In this document: positions 2,650-35,648 of the stretch, piece after piece
How the letters are laid out: each line of letters starts with the position of its first letter
Numbering within the stretch: position 1 is the first letter of the stretch
Assembly: GCA_041697335.1 (NCBI GenBank)
Contig: JBGUGD010000023.1
Coordinates: 118,515-182,514, forward strand
DNA: 64,000 nt
Direction of reading: 5' to 3'
Source of the DNA: Vampirovibrionaceae bacterium NZW_1234
Lineage (GTDB): Bacteria; Cyanobacteriota; Vampirovibrionia; Vampirovibrionales; JAGQHJ01
The notes under the pieces: model-generated
Databases searched by the model: none
The model's input: only the letters and a program-made list of their open reading frames with translations
What the model was told of the DNA's origin: nothing
Program-made: the position numbers and the translations under genes

Positions 2650-3579
2650 TTAGTAAGCTCGCGGGGGAATGCCGTGGACCAGGAGATCGATGATGCGGTC
2701 GCTGATGGGGTAGCCGGAGAGCTGCTCATCCAGGATGAACACGGGTGTGGGGTTGCCTTCGAAGAAGACGTATTCGCCCTCCGGGGTGCGGCGCAGGTCG
2801 ATGCCGGTGAAGACCAGTTTAAGGACATCGGCCAGGCGTTTGCAGTCGGTCAGAACCTCGTCGGGGAGGGTGATGGGCACCCGCTTGGCTTCGTCGTCCT
2901 CTCGAAAGTCCAGGGTGGTGCTGTGGATCTCCATGGCAAACATCTCGTTGCCCACCAGGTAGGCTCGGATGTCCGTGCCGGGGATGAACTCCTGGAGCTT
3001 CACGGGTGAGTTGGCCAGGGTTTTGAGGCGCTCGGAGGTCAGGTCCTCGTCTTTTAAGAGGGTGGTGTGGGCCCAGCCTCGGACGGGTTTGAAGATGACC
3101 TGCTTGTTCAGGCGTTCGTAGAAGGCGATTAATTCGTCCGGGTCGTTGGTGATGAGGGTTTCGGGGACGCGGATGCCCGCCTGGTTGAGGAGTTGGAGCT
3201 GATAGCCCTTGTACTTGTGCATTTCCACCGACTCCCAGGGGTTGACCCAGGGGCAATCGAGGACCCGGCAGAAGCTGCCGATGGCCGATTCGATGTTCCA
3301 GTAGACGATTTCGTTGAGCATGGGGTCGTCTTCGTGGGGGGCGTTGACCCCTTTGGACCAGCGGCGGTAGACGCCCTGAATATCGGAGAAGGCCACCTTG
3401 GGTTCGGAGGGGGAGGCCTGGAAGAAGCCTTCGCATGGGCTTTCGGGTTTGTAGGATATCAAGGTCACCGTGGGATACTGGGTGGTATCGAACATGGTGG
3501 TCTTGAGCCCCCGTTGATGCATTTTGGATTGCATGTAGACGGAGGGGTAATCATCCGGGGTGCCGACAATGAGAATCAT
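2650..3579 (-). CDS. ATP-grasp ligase (RimK-like/graspetide synthetase family), paralog of 12092..13000
   Basis: WVNP, K.YQL, VPETLITND, IFKP, LQEFIPG.DIR, GIDLRRTPEGEYVFFEGNP motifs; colinear with the ligase beside the precursors. Confidence 0.9.
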   Translation of the reverse strand: MILIVGTPDDYPSVYMQSKMHQRGLKTTMFDTTQYPTVTLISYKPESPCEGFFQASPSEPKVAFSDIQGVYRRWSKGVNAPHEDDPMLNEIVYWNIESAIGSFCRVLDCPWVNPWESVEMHKYKGYQLQLLNQAGIRVPETLITNDPDELIAFYERLNKQVIFKPVRGWAHTTLLKDEDLTSERLKTLANSPVKLQEFIPGTDIRAYLVGNEMFAMEIHSTTLDFREDDEAKRVPITLPDEVLTDCKRLADVLKLVFTGIDLRRTPEGEYVFFEGNPTPVFILDEQLSGYPISDRIIDLLVHGIPPRAY

Positions 3580-10681: not shown

Positions 10682-11116
10682 TTAGGAAAAGGTTCTGTTG
10701 CCCTTGAGCAGGTTGAGCAGGACTTGAAGGCGTTGGAGTATCTGGGTGATGTCCATATTGCCTCCGGGCGGGCGGAAGCCGCCTTCCTGATCGCTGGGGA
10801 ATTTTTCGGTCCCAACACCGCAGAACATGGGCGGACGTGTGCCGCCTTCCTGGTCGCTGGGGAACTTGAGCGTTTGGATGTCGCCACCGATGGGGGGACG
10901 CGTGCCGCCTTCCTGATCGCTGGGGAATTTTAAGGTTTGAATGTCGCCACCGATGGGAGGACGTGTGCCGCCTTCCTGATCGCTGGGGAATTTGCGGGTT
11001 TGAACATCGCCACCGATGGGGGGACGCGTGCCGCCTTCCTGATCACTGGGGAATTTCATCGTGGTCGCAATGTTGCGACTTCCGAGGCTTGCATAATCTA
11101 AAAAATATCCCGACAT
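10682..11116 (-). CDS. Multicore graspetide (microviridin/marinostatin-type) precursor A, 5 cores TxKFPSDQE
   Basis: AGGA before ATG 11116; five cores at exact 21-aa spacing matching the TxKxPSD motif; synonymous codon differences between repeats; downstream of an ATP-grasp ligase. Confidence 0.9.
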   Translation of the reverse strand: MSGYFLDYASLGSRNIATTMKFPSDQEGGTRPPIGGDVQTRKFPSDQEGGTRPPIGGDIQTLKFPSDQEGGTRPPIGGDIQTLKFPSDQEGGTRPPMFCGVGTEKFPSDQEGGFRPPGGNMDITQILQRLQVLLNLLKGNRTFS

Positions 11117-11358
11117 GAAAACCGTCCTATCTGAACACCACAAAAATATCTATATATATATAAACAATTTATTTCAGGATTAATTGCCACGAAACGCCCA
11201 AAGGTAACGTTTTGTAACACCATTAGGCATCATGGTCAGTCCTCACGATTCGGTGTGTTCACCTTGGGGTATCTCCATCTGAGGGTGTGATCGCCGGTGT
11301 CTGGCAAGCTCTGGACGCGGTTAGCCAGAATACATACTGAGTGTGACCCGTAACAAGC

Positions 11359-11892
11359 TTACGAATTGGCTCTGAAATTCTGCAAAAGCAGCATCAGAAC
11401 AAGAATTCGCTGGAAGGATAGGCCCGAGGAATTGTTGTTTCCCGGTGGGCGTATGCCGCTTTCATCGTCACTGGGAGCTTTCATGGTGAGGCTTATCTTG
11501 TCGATGGGTGGGTGCATCCCTCCTGGCGGACGGATGCCGCTTTCATCATCGCTGGGAGCCTTCATGGTGAAGCTAATCTTGTCGATGGGTGGGTGCATCC
11601 CTCCTGGCGGGCGATAGCCGCTTTCATCATCGCTGGGGGCCTTCATGGTGAGATTGATATAGTCAAAGGGAGGGCGATAGCCGCTTTCATCATCACTGGG
11701 GGCTTTCATGGTGTATGCCAAAGCATCGTTAGGAGGACGATAGCCACTTTCATCATCACTGGGGGCTTTCATGGTATAGGCCAAAGCATCGTTGGGGGGA
11801 CGATAGCCGCTTTCATCATCGCTGGGGGCTTTCATGGTGTACCCGATATTTCGGGGAGCCGACTGGGCATAGTCAAAGAAATATTGAGACAC
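11359..11892 (-). CDS. Multicore graspetide precursor B, 6 cores TMKAPSDDE
   Basis: AGGAG before GTG 11892; six cores at 21/21/21/27/27-aa spacing; leader homologous to precursor A. Confidence 0.9.
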   Translation of the reverse strand: MSQYFFDYAQSAPRNIGYTMKAPSDDESGYRPPNDALAYTMKAPSDDESGYRPPNDALAYTMKAPSDDESGYRPPFDYINLTMKAPSDDESGYRPPGGMHPPIDKISFTMKAPSDDESGIRPPGGMHPPIDKISLTMKAPSDDESGIRPPGNNNSSGLSFQRILVLMLLLQNFRANS

Positions 11893-12091
11893 TAACTCTC
11901 TCCTAACATGGATGTGGTTATTTAATCATATTTATATAAAAAAATAATATTTCTACCAATTGCCTGAAGTCGTCCTCATGTAAACTTTTGTGTAAAAGAG
12001 CGCAGTGCCTGAGAAACCTGGAGCTGCTGTGCTTTATGCCCAGGAAATCGGTGAGATTATTTAAGCTCTGAAGCCTGCAGAGACAAAGGGT

Positions 12092-13000
12092 CTATGAACC
12101 GCCTCTGACCAAGGTGTCCGCCAGGCAATCGCTGATTTTAAGGCCGCTGCGGTCTTCGTAGATCATGAACAAGGGGCTGGGGTTGGCCTCGAAGAAAACG
12201 TACTCGTCGTCCGGGGTACGACGCAGGTCGATTCCGGTGAGCCTGAGACCCAGGGTCCTGGCCAGGCGGCGGCACTGGTCTTCTACGGAAGCGGGAAGGG
12301 CTGCCGGAAGAATCCGCATGGCTTGATCGGTTTTGTAATGCTCGGTGTCCGTATGGACTTCCGTGATGAACAACTCGTCCTCGATAACATGGACCCGGAT
12401 ATCCACGCCGGGAATAAATTCCTGGCACTGGACCGGCAAGGCGGAGAGTCGACTGAGGGCGTCGGGGGCCATATCCTGGTCCGTAAGCTTATGGGCAATG
12501 GCACTCCCGGCCAGGGGTTTGACGATGGCATGTCGTTGGTGGGCTTCGTAAAAGGCAACCAGCTTTTCCGGATCGTTGGTGATCAGGGTCTCAGGGACGC
12601 GAAAACCAGCAGACTTCAGTATCGAGAGCTGATGTGGCTTGAACCGGTGCAGTTCGATGGCGGTGGCGGGGTTGACCCAGTAGGTGTCCAGATTGCGCCA
12701 CAGGCTGCCGAGGGCGGCTTCCAGCTCCTGCTGAACAAAGAATCGATAAGCGACATCCTGGTGAGAGGGGAGAGACAGCCCTTCATAGCAATACCAATAC
12801 ACGGCGTCGATATCTGAAAAGGGGATGCGGTTGGGCAATTCTGGTGTTTGAATCCATCCCTCCCCGGCTTCGGTAAAGCTGATTCGGGTCTGGGTCGGGA
12901 ACGTGCGGGTATCGAAGCAGACAACCTGCTTCCCTCGGGCTTCGATTTTCTGTCGAACCCGATCGGAATGAATATCTGAGGAGCCAAGAATGAGTATCAC
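12092..13000 (-). CDS. ATP-grasp ligase, probable graspetide macrocyclase
   Basis: WVNP, KPHQL, VPETLITND, IVKP, QEFIPGVDIR, GIDLRRTPDDEYVFFEANP; co-oriented directly upstream of two TxKxPSD precursors. Confidence 0.92.
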   Translation of the reverse strand: MILILGSSDIHSDRVRQKIEARGKQVVCFDTRTFPTQTRISFTEAGEGWIQTPELPNRIPFSDIDAVYWYCYEGLSLPSHQDVAYRFFVQQELEAALGSLWRNLDTYWVNPATAIELHRFKPHQLSILKSAGFRVPETLITNDPEKLVAFYEAHQRHAIVKPLAGSAIAHKLTDQDMAPDALSRLSALPVQCQEFIPGVDIRVHVIEDELFITEVHTDTEHYKTDQAMRILPAALPASVEDQCRRLARTLGLRLTGIDLRRTPDDEYVFFEANPSPLFMIYEDRSGLKISDCLADTLVRGGS

Positions 13001-28617: not shown

Positions 28618-28722
28618 CAGCCGTTTTTTGCAGGGCGGGAACATCAGCCTTGGTCAGGAAGGGGCGGTATGGATCGATGGTGATTTACGAGTTGAATGAA
28701 ACGTATAGGTAGAGCCAGAGCG

Positions 28723-29673
28723 ATGCGAATGTTGTTTCCCCCAATCGAGCCCTATAAAAGCTATTACTTTCCTGTGTCCGATGGGCACCAGCTGTATGTG
28801 GAAGAGGTGGGAAATCCTGACGGAATTCCGGTGGTGTTTCTTCATGGCGGTCCAGGGGGCGGCTTCAGTCCGGATCATCGCCGTTTGTTTGATCCCGGTG
28901 CCTACCGCATTGTGCTTTTTGATCAACGAGGGGCGGGGAAGAGCAAGCCCCATGCCAGCCTGGAGGCCAATACGACGTGGCATCTGGTGGCCGATCTGGA
29001 GGCGTTGCGTCAATCGCTCAATATTTCGAAGTGGCTTGTCTTTGGCGGTTCATGGGGGAGTACTTTGGCACTGGCCTATGCCGAAACTCATCCCGAGGCG
29101 GTATCCGGCTTGATTCTTCGGGGCATCTTTCTCTGTCGTCCTGAAGAGATTCGCTGGTTTTATCAGGAAGGGTGCAGCTGGATTTACCCCGATTTATGGG
29201 AGGCCTATATTGCGCCGGTCCCCTCTTCCGAGCGGCATGACATGATACAGGCGTATTACCGGCTCCTGACGCATCCGGATGAAGCCATTCGGCTGCAGGC
29301 GGCCAAAGCATGGAGTGTCTGGGAAGGCTCAACCTGCAAGCTGATCCCGAATGAGTCGGTGATTGCCAACTTTGAGGCCGATGCCCATGCCTTGGCCATG
29401 GCTCGGATTGAGTGCCATTACTTTGTCAACAATGCCTTCTTTACGAAAGAGAATCAGTTACTGGCCGATGTGGATCGAATCCGCCATATCCCGACCTGGA
29501 TTGTCCATGGGCGTTACGATGTGGTCTGCCCGGCCAAAAATGCGTGGGATCTGCATCAGGTCTTTCCCGAAGCCCAGCTCCGGATTATTTCGGATGCCGG
29601 CCATGCCTACAACGAACCGGGTATTCTAGAAGCCCTGCTAGAGGCGACTGAAACCTTCAGAACGTTAACTTAA
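28723..29673 (+). CDS. pip: Proline iminopeptidase (S33)
   Basis: LHGGPGGG, FDQRGAGKS, GGSWGS nucleophile, LRGIF, GRYD, AGH. Confidence 0.96.
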   Translation: MRMLFPPIEPYKSYYFPVSDGHQLYVEEVGNPDGIPVVFLHGGPGGGFSPDHRRLFDPGAYRIVLFDQRGAGKSKPHASLEANTTWHLVADLEALRQSLNISKWLVFGGSWGSTLALAYAETHPEAVSGLILRGIFLCRPEEIRWFYQEGCSWIYPDLWEAYIAPVPSSERHDMIQAYYRLLTHPDEAIRLQAAKAWSVWEGSTCKLIPNESVIANFEADAHALAMARIECHYFVNNAFFTKENQLLADVDRIRHIPTWIVHGRYDVVCPAKNAWDLHQVFPEAQLRIISDAGHAYNEPGILEALLEATETFRTLT

Positions 29674-29685
29674 CAAGACATCCAT

Positions 29686-30405
29686 TTAAGGCATCCCTGT
29701 AAGCGTATTTGGCCAGTCGGACGGCTTTTGGCCAATAGGAGCTGGCTTTGATGGTAGTGTCTGTCTTTTTTCCCAAATGTCATTGCCATCATTTAACGCT
29801 TTTTGAGCCGCTTGATATTCCGGGTGGTCTGGTTGGATTTTAAGATGATCTCCCAGAGGACTTAAACCGGGACGTACATAAGTGGCATAGCGCCCATACA
29901 AGCTCCTTGGTGTGTTATTTTCCAGCGCATCAATTGCATTTGAATAGGTTAATCCACTAGGTGAAGAAGGTGCATTGAGGACTAGATCAAACCCTGATTT
30001 TGCCATCGCCAGTCCAGCGCCACTTCGTCCCAGCATTCCGACACCTGTCCACCCAACATTCATGAGGTTTCCTGCTAAATCATTGTTAGGGATATCTGCT
30101 AATGTAGTGGCCAGACCAAGTGTCGTTCCTCGTTTTCCGGGAATAAAGTTTGCTACTGAACCCGCCAACGATATCAGTGATGGGCTAGAAGGTTCATCAA
30201 GTCGGGGTGGTTTTTCTGGGGCTTTCGAATCATTGGATACAGCGCTCGAGCGCGTTAATGCATCGGGATATAAGTTTGGCGGTTTGCCCATGGGCTTGTA
30301 CAGAGGAGGCTGACTGAATGCTTCCCCGGGGATATTCGAATGTTTGCTTTTAAATACCGACGCACGACTGGGCGTGCAAATGGGGTCGGATAGGAATTCT
30401 GGCAT
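29686..30405 (-). CDS. Hypothetical protein
   Basis: GGAGG before ATG; 239-aa P/S-rich ORF with a central Gly/Ala-rich segment. Confidence 0.55.
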   Translation of the reverse strand: MPEFLSDPICTPSRASVFKSKHSNIPGEAFSQPPLYKPMGKPPNLYPDALTRSSAVSNDSKAPEKPPRLDEPSSPSLISLAGSVANFIPGKRGTTLGLATTLADIPNNDLAGNLMNVGWTGVGMLGRSGAGLAMAKSGFDLVLNAPSSPSGLTYSNAIDALENNTPRSLYGRYATYVRPGLSPLGDHLKIQPDHPEYQAAQKALNDGNDIWEKRQTLPSKPAPIGQKPSDWPNTLTGMP

Positions 30406-30707: not shown

Positions 30708-31745
30708 TTAGTCGTCGATGAGCGGGTGGGTGCCGTACAGGTCCTGGTACTGGAAGTAGCCTTCCTTGGTGTAGAAGTTGGCAAAAGAGAGGCTCATACT
30801 GACCCCGATGGAGCGGACAAAGTGCCACCAGCCAATGGGGAGAAACAGGATTTCGCCAGGTTCCAGAATAAAGTCATAGACTTTGGCCCGAGCAAAGAGC
30901 GGGAATTTCTCCAAATCCACACCATGTTCCAGATCGACTTTGCTCAGAAAGTTTCGATACGGATAGACATTGGGCAGATAAATCGGTGAAACCATCTGGA
31001 AATGCTTTCGCCCATGAACCTGGCAATAAATGGCGTTGGCCAGGTCAAAATGCAGGTCGGTAATCGTTCCGGAAGGGCCGAATAGAAGATACCCATGAGG
31101 GTGATCGCCCTCGGGATCCAATAACTCGGGTAAAAACTCCACCTCCTGGTACAAATCCAGAATCGTGGTTTCGTTAAAATCCGTATTGCTGTTGGTCATG
31201 TACCAGGAGTTGCTTTCGCCAGCGGAAATGGTGTCGACATACTCGGCCATGGTCATGTGGACATGGGATTTTTTAAAGTGTTCATCCATATGCACCACTT
31301 GGACTTCGCGCTCGCCATACTTGGATTTAAAGTATTCCGGCGACCAGTCCTGGAGGATTTTCCAGTGGGCGTTCATTTTCGTGAGAATAATGGGGCGGTT
31401 GGTGCAGTGGTAATGTTTGTAAAACTCTTCTCGGGTAATCGTTTCCCGGCGTTCAATTTCTTCGAACTGGCCGGAATTCTCCGAAAGCATCTGGTAAAGA
31501 CGCAGGAGCCAGTCCCGACGTTTCATCTGTCGGGCAAGCTTGGTGCCGGCAATGATATACGGATGCGTTGCAGCTTGTTCCACTTCTTTGGCAACGACGT
31601 CCTCATCAAAGCCCTGGGCAGTCATAAATTTAACAATGTCGGCGTCACTCACCTGCATCATCAGGCAATCGGCCATCCATTCCTTCCAATCGTCAGGGAT
31701 GGATTTGAACGCGTCCGTCATTGGGGGGTCCCATCGTTGAGGCAC
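30708..31745 (-). CDS. JmjC/cupin-like Fe(II)/2OG dioxygenase
   Basis: RPIIL..M..HW...W, FGPSGTITDLHFD (HxD), QVHGRK, LEPGEILFLPIGWWHFV (distal His). Confidence 0.9.
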   Translation of the reverse strand: MPQRWDPPMTDAFKSIPDDWKEWMADCLMMQVSDADIVKFMTAQGFDEDVVAKEVEQAATHPYIIAGTKLARQMKRRDWLLRLYQMLSENSGQFEEIERRETITREEFYKHYHCTNRPIILTKMNAHWKILQDWSPEYFKSKYGEREVQVVHMDEHFKKSHVHMTMAEYVDTISAGESNSWYMTNSNTDFNETTILDLYQEVEFLPELLDPEGDHPHGYLLFGPSGTITDLHFDLANAIYCQVHGRKHFQMVSPIYLPNVYPYRNFLSKVDLEHGVDLEKFPLFARAKVYDFILEPGEILFLPIGWWHFVRSIGVSMSLSFANFYTKEGYFQYQDLYGTHPLIDD

Positions 31746-31811
31746 TCTAGGACCTATCCTAGGGAAATTCCCTCGAAAATGGCACCTTTAAATGAAGGAT
31801 CTGCGGCCTGA

Positions 31812-32234
31812 TTATCGCCGCGTATTGAATTGGCCGAGTAATTTTGTCAGCATCTGAATCAAGTCCATCAATTGCTTGACCAGGTCATTGGGTACCGGGT
31901 TCGGAGCCGGTGCGGGAGATGGTGTTGGGGCCGGGGTCGGTACGGGCGCCGGGGTTGGTACTGGAGCAGGGGTAGGTGCCGGTACGGGTGCTGGTGTAGG
32001 AACAGGAGCTGGAGAGGGCACCGGAACATCGATGGGCAGAATACCCATGGGGTGAATTTCCGGGGTCGGGTCTCTATCAACTGGTAGGATACCTAGCGGG
32101 CGTACGTCCGGATTTCTATCAATGGGAAGAATACCCATGGGGACAGCATACCCGGGTCCTGGTGTTCCCGTGGTTCCGTCAGGACGAAACCCAAGGGGGG
32201 CAGCTGGAATTTGTTTTGAATTCTGAACAGACAT
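31812..32234 (-). CDS. Small repeat protein, candidate RiPP-like precursor (3x P[ML]GILP[IV]D, Pro-rich linker, C-terminal helix)
   Basis: GGAG before ATG; co-oriented 66 bp upstream of the JmjC gene. Confidence 0.7.
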   Translation of the reverse strand: MSVQNSKQIPAAPLGFRPDGTTGTPGPGYAVPMGILPIDRNPDVRPLGILPVDRDPTPEIHPMGILPIDVPVPSPAPVPTPAPVPAPTPAPVPTPAPVPTPAPTPSPAPAPNPVPNDLVKQLMDLIQMLTKLLGQFNTRR

Positions 32235-32324
32235 AACACTTCTCCATAGACTCTCACTCTATGGAGGCATGAAAACTTAAGTTTATATAAATATGATAGT
32301 TTGTTAAATTATGTTTATGGCTTT

Positions 32325-35090
32325 TTAATGAGATGATTTTTGTTTCTCCGCCAGTAAGGTCAAGCTTTTCTCTACGATTTCCTGAACGTTGTTGGAGGTC
32401 ACATGGTCTCGGATACGCTCAAGCTGAGCTTTCATCACGGCTTGGCGATGTGGATCGAATTTATGGGGGGCGGCTAGTCGCTTGGCCAGTCCAGCCGCCA
32501 GCATGGGGTTGAATTTATCGATATCAATAATTTGATCCGCCAGGAAGGTGTATCCAGAGCCGTCTTTCTGATGGAAATGAACCGTATTGGCGCAAAATCC
32601 GCCAATTAAACTCCGAACACTATTGGGGTTCTTCGGATTATAAGCCGGATGATTCAGCAGCGCGTTGACTTCCGCTAACACATCATGGCGATCGGCCATG
32701 GCCTGATCCGAGAACCATTGATCAATCGCCAGCTTATTGTTCTGATGTTTCTGGTAAAAAGCCGTAAGCCTTGTCGAACGGGTTTCCGTATCTCCATGAT
32801 TCAGGATATGGCCCAAAGCAGAACGAGTGTCTGTCATATTATGATTTCGATCAAACTGTGCAATGGCGAGGGGAAGGTGTTTTGCCGGGTTACCTGCGAT
32901 GAGGTAGGCCAGGGTCGCATTTTTAATCGCCCGTTCGCCCACATCCTTGACATTCCAATCATAAGGACGGGTTTCTGTAGACCGATTCTCCTCAAAGCGT
33001 TGTAAGAGTAAGGGCTCCAGGGCTTGACCAATTGCCCTTTGGGTATGTTTGCGAGCGGCATAGAGGGCATCGATATCAACCTGACCGTCCGGGTAGAGTT
33101 CCGAGAGGTAGCTGATACTGGGTAATGCGAGGGCGCGAGCGGCCAGTGCCGGGTCCAGTGTCCTATCCTCGAGGACGCCCTGAAATGCCTGAATTAAGCG
33201 GGAGTCCATTTGAAGGGACTGGCCTGACTGGTGAGCCTGAACCAACTCCTTTAAAACCTCGACAGCCAATGTCTGTCCGGCTTCCCATCGATTAAAGCCG
33301 TCATTATCATGGGCCATCAAGAACATGAGTTGGTCTCGGCTATAGGGGTAGTCCAATTTCACTGGGGCTGACCAGTTTCGCAATAACGAGGGTGTTGGCT
33401 TTTCAGGGACATTATGAAAGATGAATGTCTGTTCGTTCTCTTTTAAATTCAAGACATCGCCATTGGTCAGCAGATGGGCCTGGGAGGCATCGAGCTGGAG
33501 GGGGATATCGTCACCTTTGGCATTCAACAAGCCCACTCGAACCGGAATATGAAAGGGGGCTTTGGTGGGTTGCCCAGGTGTTGGCGGTGTCGATTGCCTG
33601 AGGGTTAAACGGTATTCTTTTTTATTCGGATCGTAGGCGTCGGTGACGAATAAGGTTGGGGTTCCCGCCTGGTTGTACCAGGTTTGCTGAAATTGACTCA
33701 GATCCACGCCGGAAGCATCTTCCATGGCGTTCACAAAATCTTCGCAGCTGACCGCCTGACCGTCATGACGCTCGAAGTAAAGGTCTGAACCTTTGCGGAA
33801 GGCCTTTTCCCCGATTAAAGTATGAATCATGCGGATGACTTCTGCCCCTTTTTCATACACGGTGGGGGTGTAGAAGTTTTCGATGGACCCTACCGACGCA
33901 GGTCGAATGGGATGGGCCATAGCACCGGCATCTTCCGGGAATTGGACGGTCCGCATCCCGGTGACATCATCAATCCGTTTTACCGCACGGGAGTTGAGAT
34001 CCGAGGTGAACTCTGAGTCCCGAAATACGGTAAATCCTTCTTTCAAGGTCAAATCAAACCATTTTTGAAGCGTTACCCGGTTACCGGACCAATTGTGGAA
34101 GTACTCATGAGCAACGACCGCCTGAACGTATTCATATCGGGCATCAGTTGCCGTGTCGGGATCGGCCAATACGGCAGAGGAATTGAAAATATTCAGCCCC
34201 TTGTTTTCCATGGCTCCGAAATTGAAATCGCTGACCGCAACGATTTGAAAGAGGTCCAGGTCGTATTCACGGCCAAAACGCGCTTCATCCCATTTCATGG
34301 CTTGCTTTGCCGCGGTCATGGCATGGGATAACTTGCTTTCATCGCCGTGATCGGAATAGATGCGAATGGTGACATCGCGACCGGACATTGTTTTAAACCG
34401 GTCCTCTTTCACGGCTAAATCGCCGGCGACAAACGCGAAAAGATAGGATGGCTTTTTGAACGGATCATGCCAGGTCATCGACTCGCGTCCATCCGGTAGG
34501 ATGGTTCTGGGACCTGGATTGCCGTTGGACAAGAGATGGGGGTATTTGCCTTTGGGGGCAATTAGCGTTGTTGTATATTCACTCATCACGTCGGGGCGAT
34601 CCAAATAGAAGGTAATGTTGCGGAACCCTTCCGATTCACATTGGGTCGTAAACTTTCCCCCGGAGGTATACAGGCCGTTTAACGAGCGGTTTGCCTGAGG
34701 GTTGATGCGGGTTTTGATTTCCAGTTGAAAGGGCTTATCGGGCAGTTGCGTCAGCGTCAATGTCTCTTGGTCTCTGGAGTATCTCTCTGGTGAGAGTTCC
34801 TGGCCATTGAGCTTGATGCCCAATAACTCCATGGTTGGTGTTTCGGTCCCTTCCGGGGCTGTCTCAGGAGCGCCAACCAGCTGCAATGTCTCAGAAGACG
34901 CCTTGGACTTGGGGTTGGGTTGAATGCTCAGTTTTGATGTGACCTCCACATGGTCTTCCGAATGAAGTTCAAAGACTAAATCCGTTTTGCTGATGAGGTG
35001 TGAAGGGGGGGTGTAGTCGTTAATATTGAGCTCTTTAAGCGGCTGTGCGCCGAAGAGGAGGGGGGCCTGTGTTGTGTTTTGGCTCGTCAT
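32325..35090 (-). CDS. pepN: Aminopeptidase N (M1)
   Basis: TQCESEGFR, GAMENKGLN, HEYFHNWSGNRVT, LKEG, YEKGAEVIRM. Start set at ATG 35090. Confidence 0.96.
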   Translation of the reverse strand: MTSQNTTQAPLLFGAQPLKELNINDYTPPSHLISKTDLVFELHSEDHVEVTSKLSIQPNPKSKASSETLQLVGAPETAPEGTETPTMELLGIKLNGQELSPERYSRDQETLTLTQLPDKPFQLEIKTRINPQANRSLNGLYTSGGKFTTQCESEGFRNITFYLDRPDVMSEYTTTLIAPKGKYPHLLSNGNPGPRTILPDGRESMTWHDPFKKPSYLFAFVAGDLAVKEDRFKTMSGRDVTIRIYSDHGDESKLSHAMTAAKQAMKWDEARFGREYDLDLFQIVAVSDFNFGAMENKGLNIFNSSAVLADPDTATDARYEYVQAVVAHEYFHNWSGNRVTLQKWFDLTLKEGFTVFRDSEFTSDLNSRAVKRIDDVTGMRTVQFPEDAGAMAHPIRPASVGSIENFYTPTVYEKGAEVIRMIHTLIGEKAFRKGSDLYFERHDGQAVSCEDFVNAMEDASGVDLSQFQQTWYNQAGTPTLFVTDAYDPNKKEYRLTLRQSTPPTPGQPTKAPFHIPVRVGLLNAKGDDIPLQLDASQAHLLTNGDVLNLKENEQTFIFHNVPEKPTPSLLRNWSAPVKLDYPYSRDQLMFLMAHDNDGFNRWEAGQTLAVEVLKELVQAHQSGQSLQMDSRLIQAFQGVLEDRTLDPALAARALALPSISYLSELYPDGQVDIDALYAARKHTQRAIGQALEPLLLQRFEENRSTETRPYDWNVKDVGERAIKNATLAYLIAGNPAKHLPLAIAQFDRNHNMTDTRSALGHILNHGDTETRSTRLTAFYQKHQNNKLAIDQWFSDQAMADRHDVLAEVNALLNHPAYNPKNPNSVRSLIGGFCANTVHFHQKDGSGYTFLADQIIDIDKFNPMLAAGLAKRLAAPHKFDPHRQAVMKAQLERIRDHVTSNNVQEIVEKSLTLLAEKQKSSH

Positions 35091-35648
35091 CTTCTTGGAA
35101 ATCCTTCTTTGAAACTGAGGCAACAGGGTAAATATGTCGGCTGCTGGTGGGCCTGGTGTCAGAGGTTTATCGGGGAGCGATGATTCACCTAAGTGATTTG
35201 CGCCCTCTGACTTCCTATTAGTATAGCCTGATCTGAACCGGCCGAGGTTGGATCCTGTTATCTGAATCATGCGACGCATTCCCCCGTAATATGGCTTTGT
35301 TGGTCTCCCCTGGGACTGGGATATACGATACGGCGTCAACAATGTTTGTCAAATTAAATTAAAAAAACCTCTAATGTAGCCCCTGATGGGCAATGAAATT
35401 CAGGCGATATCTTCCGTCGGTTTCCAGCCCTCAACCGAATTTATGTGCTCCTCAACTTTGGGTGACCGGATGGCCTCTTTGGAATTTCTTAATCATTGTA
35501 ACTGTTTGTTAATAAATTAAATGAAATTATAAACAAGTTAGCATCAAAGATTAATTTTTTGTTTTTATACTTATGTGACATATACAGTGTGTTCTCAAAC
35601 TAAGGTCGAAACGGTGTGAACCTAACGGTTTCTGGAGGTTAAACAAAA

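Follow-up and report, generated by a model that had tools for sequence, protein, structure and literature searches.

The window analysed here is a 64,000-nucleotide stretch of contig JBGUGD010000023.1 from Vampirovibrionaceae bacterium NZW_1234 (genome G000), and our subject is a pair of co-oriented genes on its reverse strand, one for a 140-residue repeat peptide and one, directly downstream, for an oxygenase of the JmjC type (Table 1). The peptide open reading frame (ORF) begins at an ATG with GGAG 7 nt ahead. The spacer between the genes is 66 bp if the enzyme starts at GTG, or 90 bp if it starts at the ATG at 31721; the database protein P0001 (337 residues) agrees with the ATG. An original prediction, made from the sequence without database searches, had described the peptide as three P-[ML]-G-I-L-P-[IV]-D motifs (hereafter cores), an X-Pro linker and a helix-like tail, and the sequence bears this out. 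Neither Pfam nor NCBIfam gave a match of note to the peptide.

Table 1 Features of the gene pair and of the surrounding window (window coordinates)
Feature	Position	Strand	Basis or remark
Repeat-peptide gene, 140 aa, putative substrate	31812..32234	(-)	ORF, conservation
N-terminal motif A-P-L-G-F-R-P, aa 12-18	32181..32201	(-)	conserved in 6/6 peptides
Core 1 PMGILPID, aa 32-39	32118..32141	(-)	sequence
Core 2 PLGILPVD, aa 46-53	32076..32099	(-)	sequence
Core 3 PMGILPID, aa 62-69	32028..32051	(-)	sequence
(X-Pro)23 linker, aa 70-115, unbroken; rival substrate	31890..32027	(-)	sequence
C-terminal Leu/Gln-rich helix-like tail, aa 116-140	31815..31889	(-)	also on unrelated proteins of the genome
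JmjC/Cupin_8 Fe(II)/2-oxoglutarate oxygenase, JMJD5-like, 345 aa from GTG (337 aa from ATG 31721)	30708..31745	(-)	Cupin_8, JMJD5 alignment, model
Iron triad H232, D234, H308 and 2-oxoglutarate lysine K247	30822..31052	(-)	JMJD5 alignment
N-terminal four-helix domain, aa 12-95	31461..31712	(-)	subfamily-wide; also on co-located prolyl-4-hydroxylase-type enzymes
9-bp hairpin over the GGAG ribosome-binding site of the peptide gene	32242..32266	(-)	z -1.33, not beyond chance
239-aa low-complexity ORF, downstream of JmjC	29686-30405	(-)	no family match
Second ATP-grasp maturase, 7 kb from graspetide precursors	2650-3579	(-)	no precursor-like ORF directly upstream (by eye)

The triple core repeat exceeds chance. 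Of 71,044 six-frame ORFs in the genome, two contain GILP[IV]D, and only the window peptide has it in triplicate; shuffling residues 1–69 gave any 4-mer three times in 302 of 200,000 cases. At the codon level the three cores differ mostly by synonymous changes. A further stretch, PLGFRPD at residues 13–19, had been taken for a degenerate core; it belongs instead to a separately conserved motif, A-P-L-G-[FYWH]-x-P, found near the N-terminus of all six peptides described below. A-P-L-G-x-x-P is a candidate recognition or leader motif.

The peptide–JmjC pair is conserved. Among 61 related genomes we found 14 enzyme matches in ten. One of these, in a bacterium of another genus (G001, locus L002), is 58% identical to the window enzyme and has a co-oriented peptide gene 204 bp upstream, whose product likewise has the N-terminal motif, three cores and a helix, with a shorter linker. 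Profile searches added four peptides (P0046, P0048, P0051 and P0052). P0046 and a 61% identical enzyme, P0002, each come from an ENA contig of 26,151 bp, so they are probably a third adjacent pair, in a probable third genus. A short precursor gene and a tailoring enzyme conserved as a unit, a trait of peptides that are made on the ribosome and modified after translation (RiPPs), are thus seen in the window and in L002, and presumably in the third pair.

Comparison of the six peptides, otherwise only 29–47% identical, separates what is kept from what is not. Together they hold 18 cores (1–5 each) of the form P-[ML]-G-[IV]-[LM]-P-[IV]-[DNE]; outside P1, G3 and P6, which the search pattern fixed, positions 2, 4, 5 and 7 were free and vary only between M/L, V/I, M/L and I/V (Ile at position 7 in 16 of 18), and position 8 is Asp in 13, Asn in three and Glu in two. 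The linker and tail helix are not conserved: X-Pro runs number 23, 9, 0, 4, 4 and 4, and P0046 has four cores, no linker and no evident helix. The core, and not the linker or the helix, is therefore what the orthologue clade retains, in keeping with the importance originally given to the repeat.

A codon-level pattern for the core, scanned over 401 genomes, occurs in triplicate only in G000 and G001, the two that hold the orthologous enzyme; 29 others have one match. A phylum-wide search of 400 genomes gave no further member of the orthologue clade, homologues appearing only at E values of 1e-76 to 1e-90. Other searches were less productive: a first contig scan with a single protein returned 14 stretches, none a relative, and a word-index search with the core region alone gave 17 candidates, none of which scored, whereas profile searches found the homologues. 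We rejected P0047 and P0050 as repeat noise from eukaryote-like proteins and excluded from all counts P0049, which looks like a frameshifted copy of an L002-type peptide. Upstream of the GILPID-type peptide in G001 lies a second repeat gene (L002:3-578), rich in Gly, Pro and Tyr and with a near-identical helix.

The enzyme had been read as a co-oriented JmjC protein with an intact HxD...H triad and an extra N-terminal helical domain, and domain match, alignment and model all agree. Cupin_8 covers residues 106–321 (E 3e-38), and the structure model (predicted local distance difference test, pLDDT, 87.8) matches JMJD5 in Foldseek (E 4e-21). Human JMJD5 is the closest solved relative by sequence and fold together (E 5e-30, 32% identity, template-modelling score 0.84 by target). 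The double-stranded β-helix lacks chromatin domains, as is characteristic of the FIH/JMJD5 clade. By alignment H232, D234, H308, K247, Y182 and T229 correspond to JMJD5 H321, D323, H400, K336, Y272 and S318. The triad is invariant in 16 of 16 aligned proteins; among 184 other homologues triad and K247 are kept in 184 or 183, as they are in all six orthologues. FIH and JMJD5, the latter an arginyl C-3 hydroxylase, thus share with the window enzyme the HxD...H and, in the 2-oxoglutarate site, Lys, Tyr and Ser/Thr (residue roles from PMC5862942).

The substrate side of the site differs. The arginine anchor E238 of JMJD5 is V151 in the window enzyme, W310 is L221, N327 is A238 and L329 is Y240, so that the Glu238/Trp310 pocket of JMJD5-type arginyl hydroxylases is absent; according to PMC5862942, W310 is required for activity in JMJD5. 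Since the metal and 2-oxoglutarate ligands match and the arginine-pocket residues are changed, the enzyme is predicted to be an active oxygenase and is likely no arginine hydroxylase. It has no match to the PF13640 prolyl-4-hydroxylase domain.

A second departure from JMJD5 is the extra N-terminal domain (residues 12–95), modelled as four helices with a pLDDT of 93.7. It has no Pfam match and no Foldseek match at E 0.001, the best ESM Atlas value being 0.81. A RiPP recognition element (RRE) is defined as three strands followed by three helices and is present in many, though not all, RiPP classes (PMC12710340); this fold is absent from the all-helical domain, and we discarded an apparent resemblance to a lasso RRE (rank 14, E 5.5) as noise. 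A predicted complex of enzyme, Fe and peptide residues 8–72 scored 0.09 against a mark of 0.32 and carries no weight for or against binding.

In a tree of 33 proteins selected from 195, the six orthologous enzymes form a clade (support 100/100) on a long stem. Their pocket is distinctive: position 221 is Leu or Phe, against Trp in 182 of 184 others, D230 and F/Y233 are likewise their own, and in all the clade departs from the (Thr-Pro)n-linked majority described below at 221, 230, 233, 236, 240 and 262.

Paralogues are paired with other repeats. A co-oriented repeat peptide lies directly upstream in five of the 14 matches in close relatives (the window, L002, L011, L010 and L014), and these five loci carry four different core types amid different flanking genes, with proline in every type. 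The L011 peptide, in the window's own genome, is a long Pro/Met-rich ORF with DDKFVYNPPPPMP-like units, directly upstream of a 38% identical paralogue on contig C15 (G000:C15:2698-4773, L011/L199). That of L010 (L010:910-2331, genome G006) has YPPMIAGFPEIAVGEPS units, an AGFPE repeat, and a terminal helix, beside an enzyme without the first three N-terminal helices; that of L014 (L014:568-2511, in G001) has NPYGGGG units, and a GT9 gene follows the locus. The paired enzymes form one moderately supported group with L012 and L013 (85/93), on long branches whose joins are unsure. As grounds for its own refutation the original prediction had named a lack of modification together with JmjC homologues lacking such neighbours. 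The latter does not hold for the orthologue clade, since the pair is conserved there and paralogues too stand behind repeat peptides; the expectation of repeat neighbours holds for these five loci and fails for the other nine. Separately, one 39% homologue (L005:1495-2652, G003) is split across two frames.

The wider subfamily is tied to proline-rich repeats. X-Pro runs were first noticed in a metagenome sample, the best 80 of 378 loci at 30–39% identity; a genome sample, the best 80 of 479 named loci, was taken after the X-Pro idea had been recorded. In Oxalobacteraceae, (Thr-Pro)n runs are recurrent in chitinase operons; they recur, too, next to large proteins in Planctomycetota, Myxococcota, Burkholderiaceae and Acidobacteriota. 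In L079, L088, L096, L128, L134, L172 and L175 (Oxalobacteraceae and metagenome) the JmjC homologue sits within GH18/GH19 chitinase operons, with CBM5/12 joined by (Thr-Pro)15-31. We counted (Thr-Pro)8 on 50 of the 80 genomes, dropping the L002 duplicate, three more and, for the most part, near-kin among Oxalobacteraceae and filamentous cyanobacteria. Such a run occurs somewhere in 36 of the 50 and inside the locus (about 5 kb) in 14; the expectation is no more than 4.9 if each overlapping match counts as a separate site. In six genomes of 6.6–10 Mb all matches fall inside the locus. The 14 cases are not all independent, since six are Oxalobacteraceae. A co-oriented upstream ORF with at least 12 prolines per 30 residues precedes the enzyme at 49 of 148 loci with room for one, against 29 of 504 other genes (175 loci); by 60%-identity clusters the signal is seen in 13 of 37.

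Other modifying enzymes keep company with these homologues. Of 177 loci, seed loci included, 28 have a PF13640-type oxygenase fused or nearby (the cyanobacterial and L057-type matches being weaker), 14 have DUF6065, eight have sulfotransferases and two have PF11397 N-acetylglucosamine (GlcNAc) transferases; glycosyltransferases recur. JmjC–PF13640 fusions are found in L027–L030, L147 and L183, and the two are neighbours in L043, L103, L106, L111, L180 and L191. Several PF13640 partners bear the JmjC enzyme's own N-terminal domain, which suggests a shared substrate or complex.

Three arrangements in this sample deserve record. Two Acidobacteriaceae loci (L147:852-5822 and L183:1825-5801) place a PF11397 GlcNAc transferase, a DEPPDGGTPEPG-repeat protein and a PF13640–JmjC fusion in one co-oriented block; PF11397 is the family of the Skp1 hydroxyproline transferase, and the block is a candidate hydroxyproline glycosylation system. 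In Planctomycetota (L121, L127, L139, L161, L178 and L118) DUF6065 and sulfotransferases are beside or fused to JmjC. Filamentous cyanobacteria (L116, L117, L126, L130, L132, L137, L143 and L187) have two JmjC and then two PF13640-like genes after purH, with no proline-rich neighbour to this block.

Because the pair is conserved in a related bacterium and relatives of the enzyme stand beside proline-rich repeats, the enzyme likely acts on the peptide's motif; substrate and target are both read from conservation and neighbourhood. We tentatively favour hydroxylation of the repeated cores, probably at one of their two prolines, and give this specific proposal somewhat less than an even chance. 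Its parts fare better separately: it is fairly probable that the cores are hydroxylated at some residue, and slightly better than even that proline is the target, whether in the cores or in the linker. On this proposal the two genes would be co-transcribed and the enzyme would use Fe(II), 2-oxoglutarate and O2 in the cytoplasm (no signal peptide was seen by eye). It would bind the peptide, perhaps by means of its helical N-terminal domain and the peptide's A-P-L-G-x-x-P motif, and each core would gain one +16 Da, with proline as the target. The enzyme would descend from a widespread one acting on (Thr-Pro)n-type linkers, and this order's paralogues would each have been re-tuned to their own repeat peptide.

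Several points weigh against hydroxylation of core prolines. The prolines of the core were themselves fixed by the search pattern. Only two pairs have been seen as DNA, P0003, P0005, P0006, P0048, P0051 and P0052 being known without gene context. Nine of the 14 close-relative matches (L012, L013 and seven homologues of 37–39% identity, L003–L009) have no upstream repeat peptide. Neither proline-rich neighbour signal is found in 20 of the 39 enzyme clusters, and one Oxalobacteraceae-rich cluster supplies 32 of the 49 loci with a proline-rich upstream ORF. The equivalents of JMJD5 W310 and N327 are replaced. Characterised prolyl hydroxylases belong to a different structural subfamily from JmjC (PMC4543633), and where both enzymes are present the PF13640 one may be the one acting on proline.

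The remaining objections bear on a specific alternative, possible though on balance unlikely, in which the cores are the substrate and the target is another residue: β-hydroxylation of Asp/Asn at position 8 as by FIH, hydroxylation of Ile, Leu or Met, or a different oxidation (desaturation or a cross-link, for example). The interchange of Asp and Asn at position 8 (with Glu in two cores) fits Asp/Asn β-hydroxylation, the near-constant Ile at position 7 offers an aliphatic target, and the remodelled pocket, unlike the (Thr-Pro)n-linked majority at six positions, could equally mean that the target is no longer proline. Known JmjC peptide hydroxylases use Orn and Phe, and in laxaphycins Cupin_8 enzymes are suspected of hydroxylating Leu/Asn (PMC8471579). 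The (Thr-Pro)n runs that neighbour the wider family, on the other hand, offer no Asp, Asn or Ile, and the cores of L010, L011 and L014 have in common only proline and Tyr-containing repeats, the window cores being without tyrosine. FIH-like Asn/Asp chemistry, at which the original prediction hinted, is not supported as the default reaction, the family context pointing to proline.

Proline could also be hydroxylated elsewhere, by a general (X-Pro)n linker hydroxylase that acts on residues 70–115 and, in trans, on other linker proteins, as in plant extensin-type modification, with GILPID serving binding or assembly. The family-wide (Thr-Pro)n link and the 23 X-Pro units of the window peptide favour this, as do 13 G000 ORFs with at least 12 X-Pro units (the window peptide included), the other 12 having no obvious adjoining oxygenase among neighbours judged by eye, and the recurrence of glycosyltransferases, sulfotransferases and DUF6065 beside homologues. 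We find it doubtful all the same: cores are kept where the linker is missing (P0046) or short (P0048, P0051 and P0052), the pocket residues of the orthologue clade are its own, and linkers could be served by two further paralogues in G000 and by three PF13640 enzymes there. The latter genes (C8:46868-48221 and C34:238536-239222, two of them in tandem) lack the N-terminal domain and a repeat neighbour. More doubtful still is that the peptide is no substrate and that the enzyme has some other protein or an RNA as its target, cuts peptides, or binds and catalyses nothing, the linkage reflecting co-regulation or a shared insertion: the two DNA-level pairs, the changed W310 and N327 equivalents and the many homologues without a repeat neighbour leave room for this, yet four unrelated repeat cores stand directly upstream of different paralogues amid differing flanks, the motif persists across otherwise divergent peptides, and the triad and K247 are intact in nearly every homologue and every orthologue.

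With hydroxylation of the cores as the working proposal, the pair would operate as a one-enzyme, multi-core peptide modification system, a description drawn from sequence comparison. A cleaved RiPP is unproven, since no conserved protease or exporter was seen beside the pair (in the window and on the 4.2-kb G001 contig) and activity is predicted only; we rate excision of small peptides, rather than a whole hydroxylated protein as product, as not quite an even prospect. The pair is flanked by a prolyl aminopeptidase (28696-29673, forward strand) and aminopeptidase N (PepN; 32325-35342, reverse strand). As dedicated proteases they are doubtful candidates: the linkage is not seen on the 4.2-kb contig of the pair in G001, a genome whose prolyl aminopeptidase lies on a different contig.

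Extended to the whole subfamily, the evidence allows a broader and slightly more speculative conjecture than that for the cores: an undescribed, widespread group of JmjC protein prolyl hydroxylases may decorate (Thr-Pro)n linkers of secreted bacterial proteins (chitinases, adhesins) together with PF13640-type enzymes that bear the same new four-helix N-terminal domain, sulfotransferases, glycosyltransferases and DUF6065, as a bacterial counterpart of plant extensin-type modification, and may have radiated in this order to give systems of a single enzyme, every one of them with a multi-copy proline peptide to itself. In algae and plants, prolyl 4-hydroxylases act on extensin-like (X-Pro)n repeats, and the hydroxyproline of Skp1 is glycosylated. 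The likeness lies in proline-rich repeat substrates and in the PF13640 and PF11397 (two loci) genes beside homologues of the window enzyme. The difference is that prolyl 4-hydroxylases are of another oxygenase subfamily (PMC4543633) and that the window JmjC has no such adjoining partner.

JmjC hydroxylation of ribosomal peptides is already known. BipG of the biphenomycin pathway is a JmjC Fe/2-oxoglutarate enzyme that adds 16 Da to an ornithine of a ribosomal precursor encoded in the same operon (PMC12707348). The window pair shares the joint encoding of enzyme and precursor. BipG, however, is one accessory enzyme among eight genes that include a protease and a transporter, and it acts on ornithine; the window has a lone enzyme, no conserved protease or transporter, and a core in several copies whose conserved positions include no basic residue. 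CzlI of curacozole, of the JmjC subfamily, converts Phe to Tyr, is encoded next to its pre-peptide, as in the window, and needs core-flanking sequence (PMC11575548). It differs, in that account, in being dispensable, in sitting in an azole cluster with a single core and in having been modelled on YxbC, whereas the window enzyme is JMJD5-like. Bacterial JmjC proteins in RiPP-like contexts are also remarked on in PMC12710340. Iyer et al. 2010 (PMC2938197) predicted that other dioxygenase families and sulfotransferases hydroxylate and sulfate collagen-like or tail-collar proteins; common to both cases is the notion that oxygenases of bacteria hydroxylate low-complexity extracellular proteins encoded with them, with sulfation to follow; sulfotransferases stand at eight of 177 homologue loci.

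Nearer at hand, the window holds a graspetide locus (10682-13000) whose design the pair was thought to mirror. Repeat cores, a C-terminal helix and a single co-oriented downstream enzyme are indeed common to both. The parallel weakens in that the helix is not RiPP-specific and the core sequences are unlike: the graspetide locus has ATP-grasp chemistry and a known microviridin-type core, whereas the enzyme of the pair is a JmjC protein and not an ATP-grasp, and its peptide has no NCBIfam graspetide match.

In the literature searched, which left most subscription papers and supplements outside its scope, we found no account of a GILPID-type core, a JmjC prolyl hydroxylase, the (Thr-Pro)n link, or DUF6065/PF13621 with peptides, nor any paper that names DUF6065; the pair is real and conserved and, within that literature, undescribed. 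A prolyl target would be unusual for the JmjC fold, which would gain a reaction that PMC4543633 assigns to another oxygenase subfamily. It would also predict that a modification has been overlooked on the (Thr-Pro)n linkers common in enzymes that bacteria secrete, for which Massilia or Duganella could serve as cultured test strains, and roles are hereby proposed for DUF6065 and the unnamed N-terminal domain. Should the target be Asp/Asn or aliphatic, an uncultured lineage would still have yielded a new multi-core peptide system with a lone enzyme. With different cores on each of four paralogues, the two-gene design offers a small natural panel for substrate specificity and a possible source of tools for hydroxylating peptides at specific sites.

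Regulatory signals around the pair are unremarkable. Hairpins over the likely ribosome-binding sites of both genes (32242-32266 and about 31745-31760) are not beyond shuffles, and a promoter/terminator scan gave four and two sites against 2.7 and 2.1 expected.

The tail helix had been likened to the tails of graspetides; a part for it as a RiPP-style recognition element is not supported. Two unrelated proteins of G000, C21:16779 and C30:67545, have the (XP)n run and helix at their ends too, so the helix is not RiPP-specific; with its presence on non-RiPP proteins and its absence from view in P0046, it is a lineage feature shared with the graspetide precursors and no proof of RiPP design. The X-Pro proteins of this genome are possible trans substrates or a possible lineage-specific sorting module. 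Further X-Pro linker proteins occur at C14:79310, C9:140335, C9:142099, C23:21600, C12:32404, C29:80325 and elsewhere, many of them next to a Leu/Met-rich helix.

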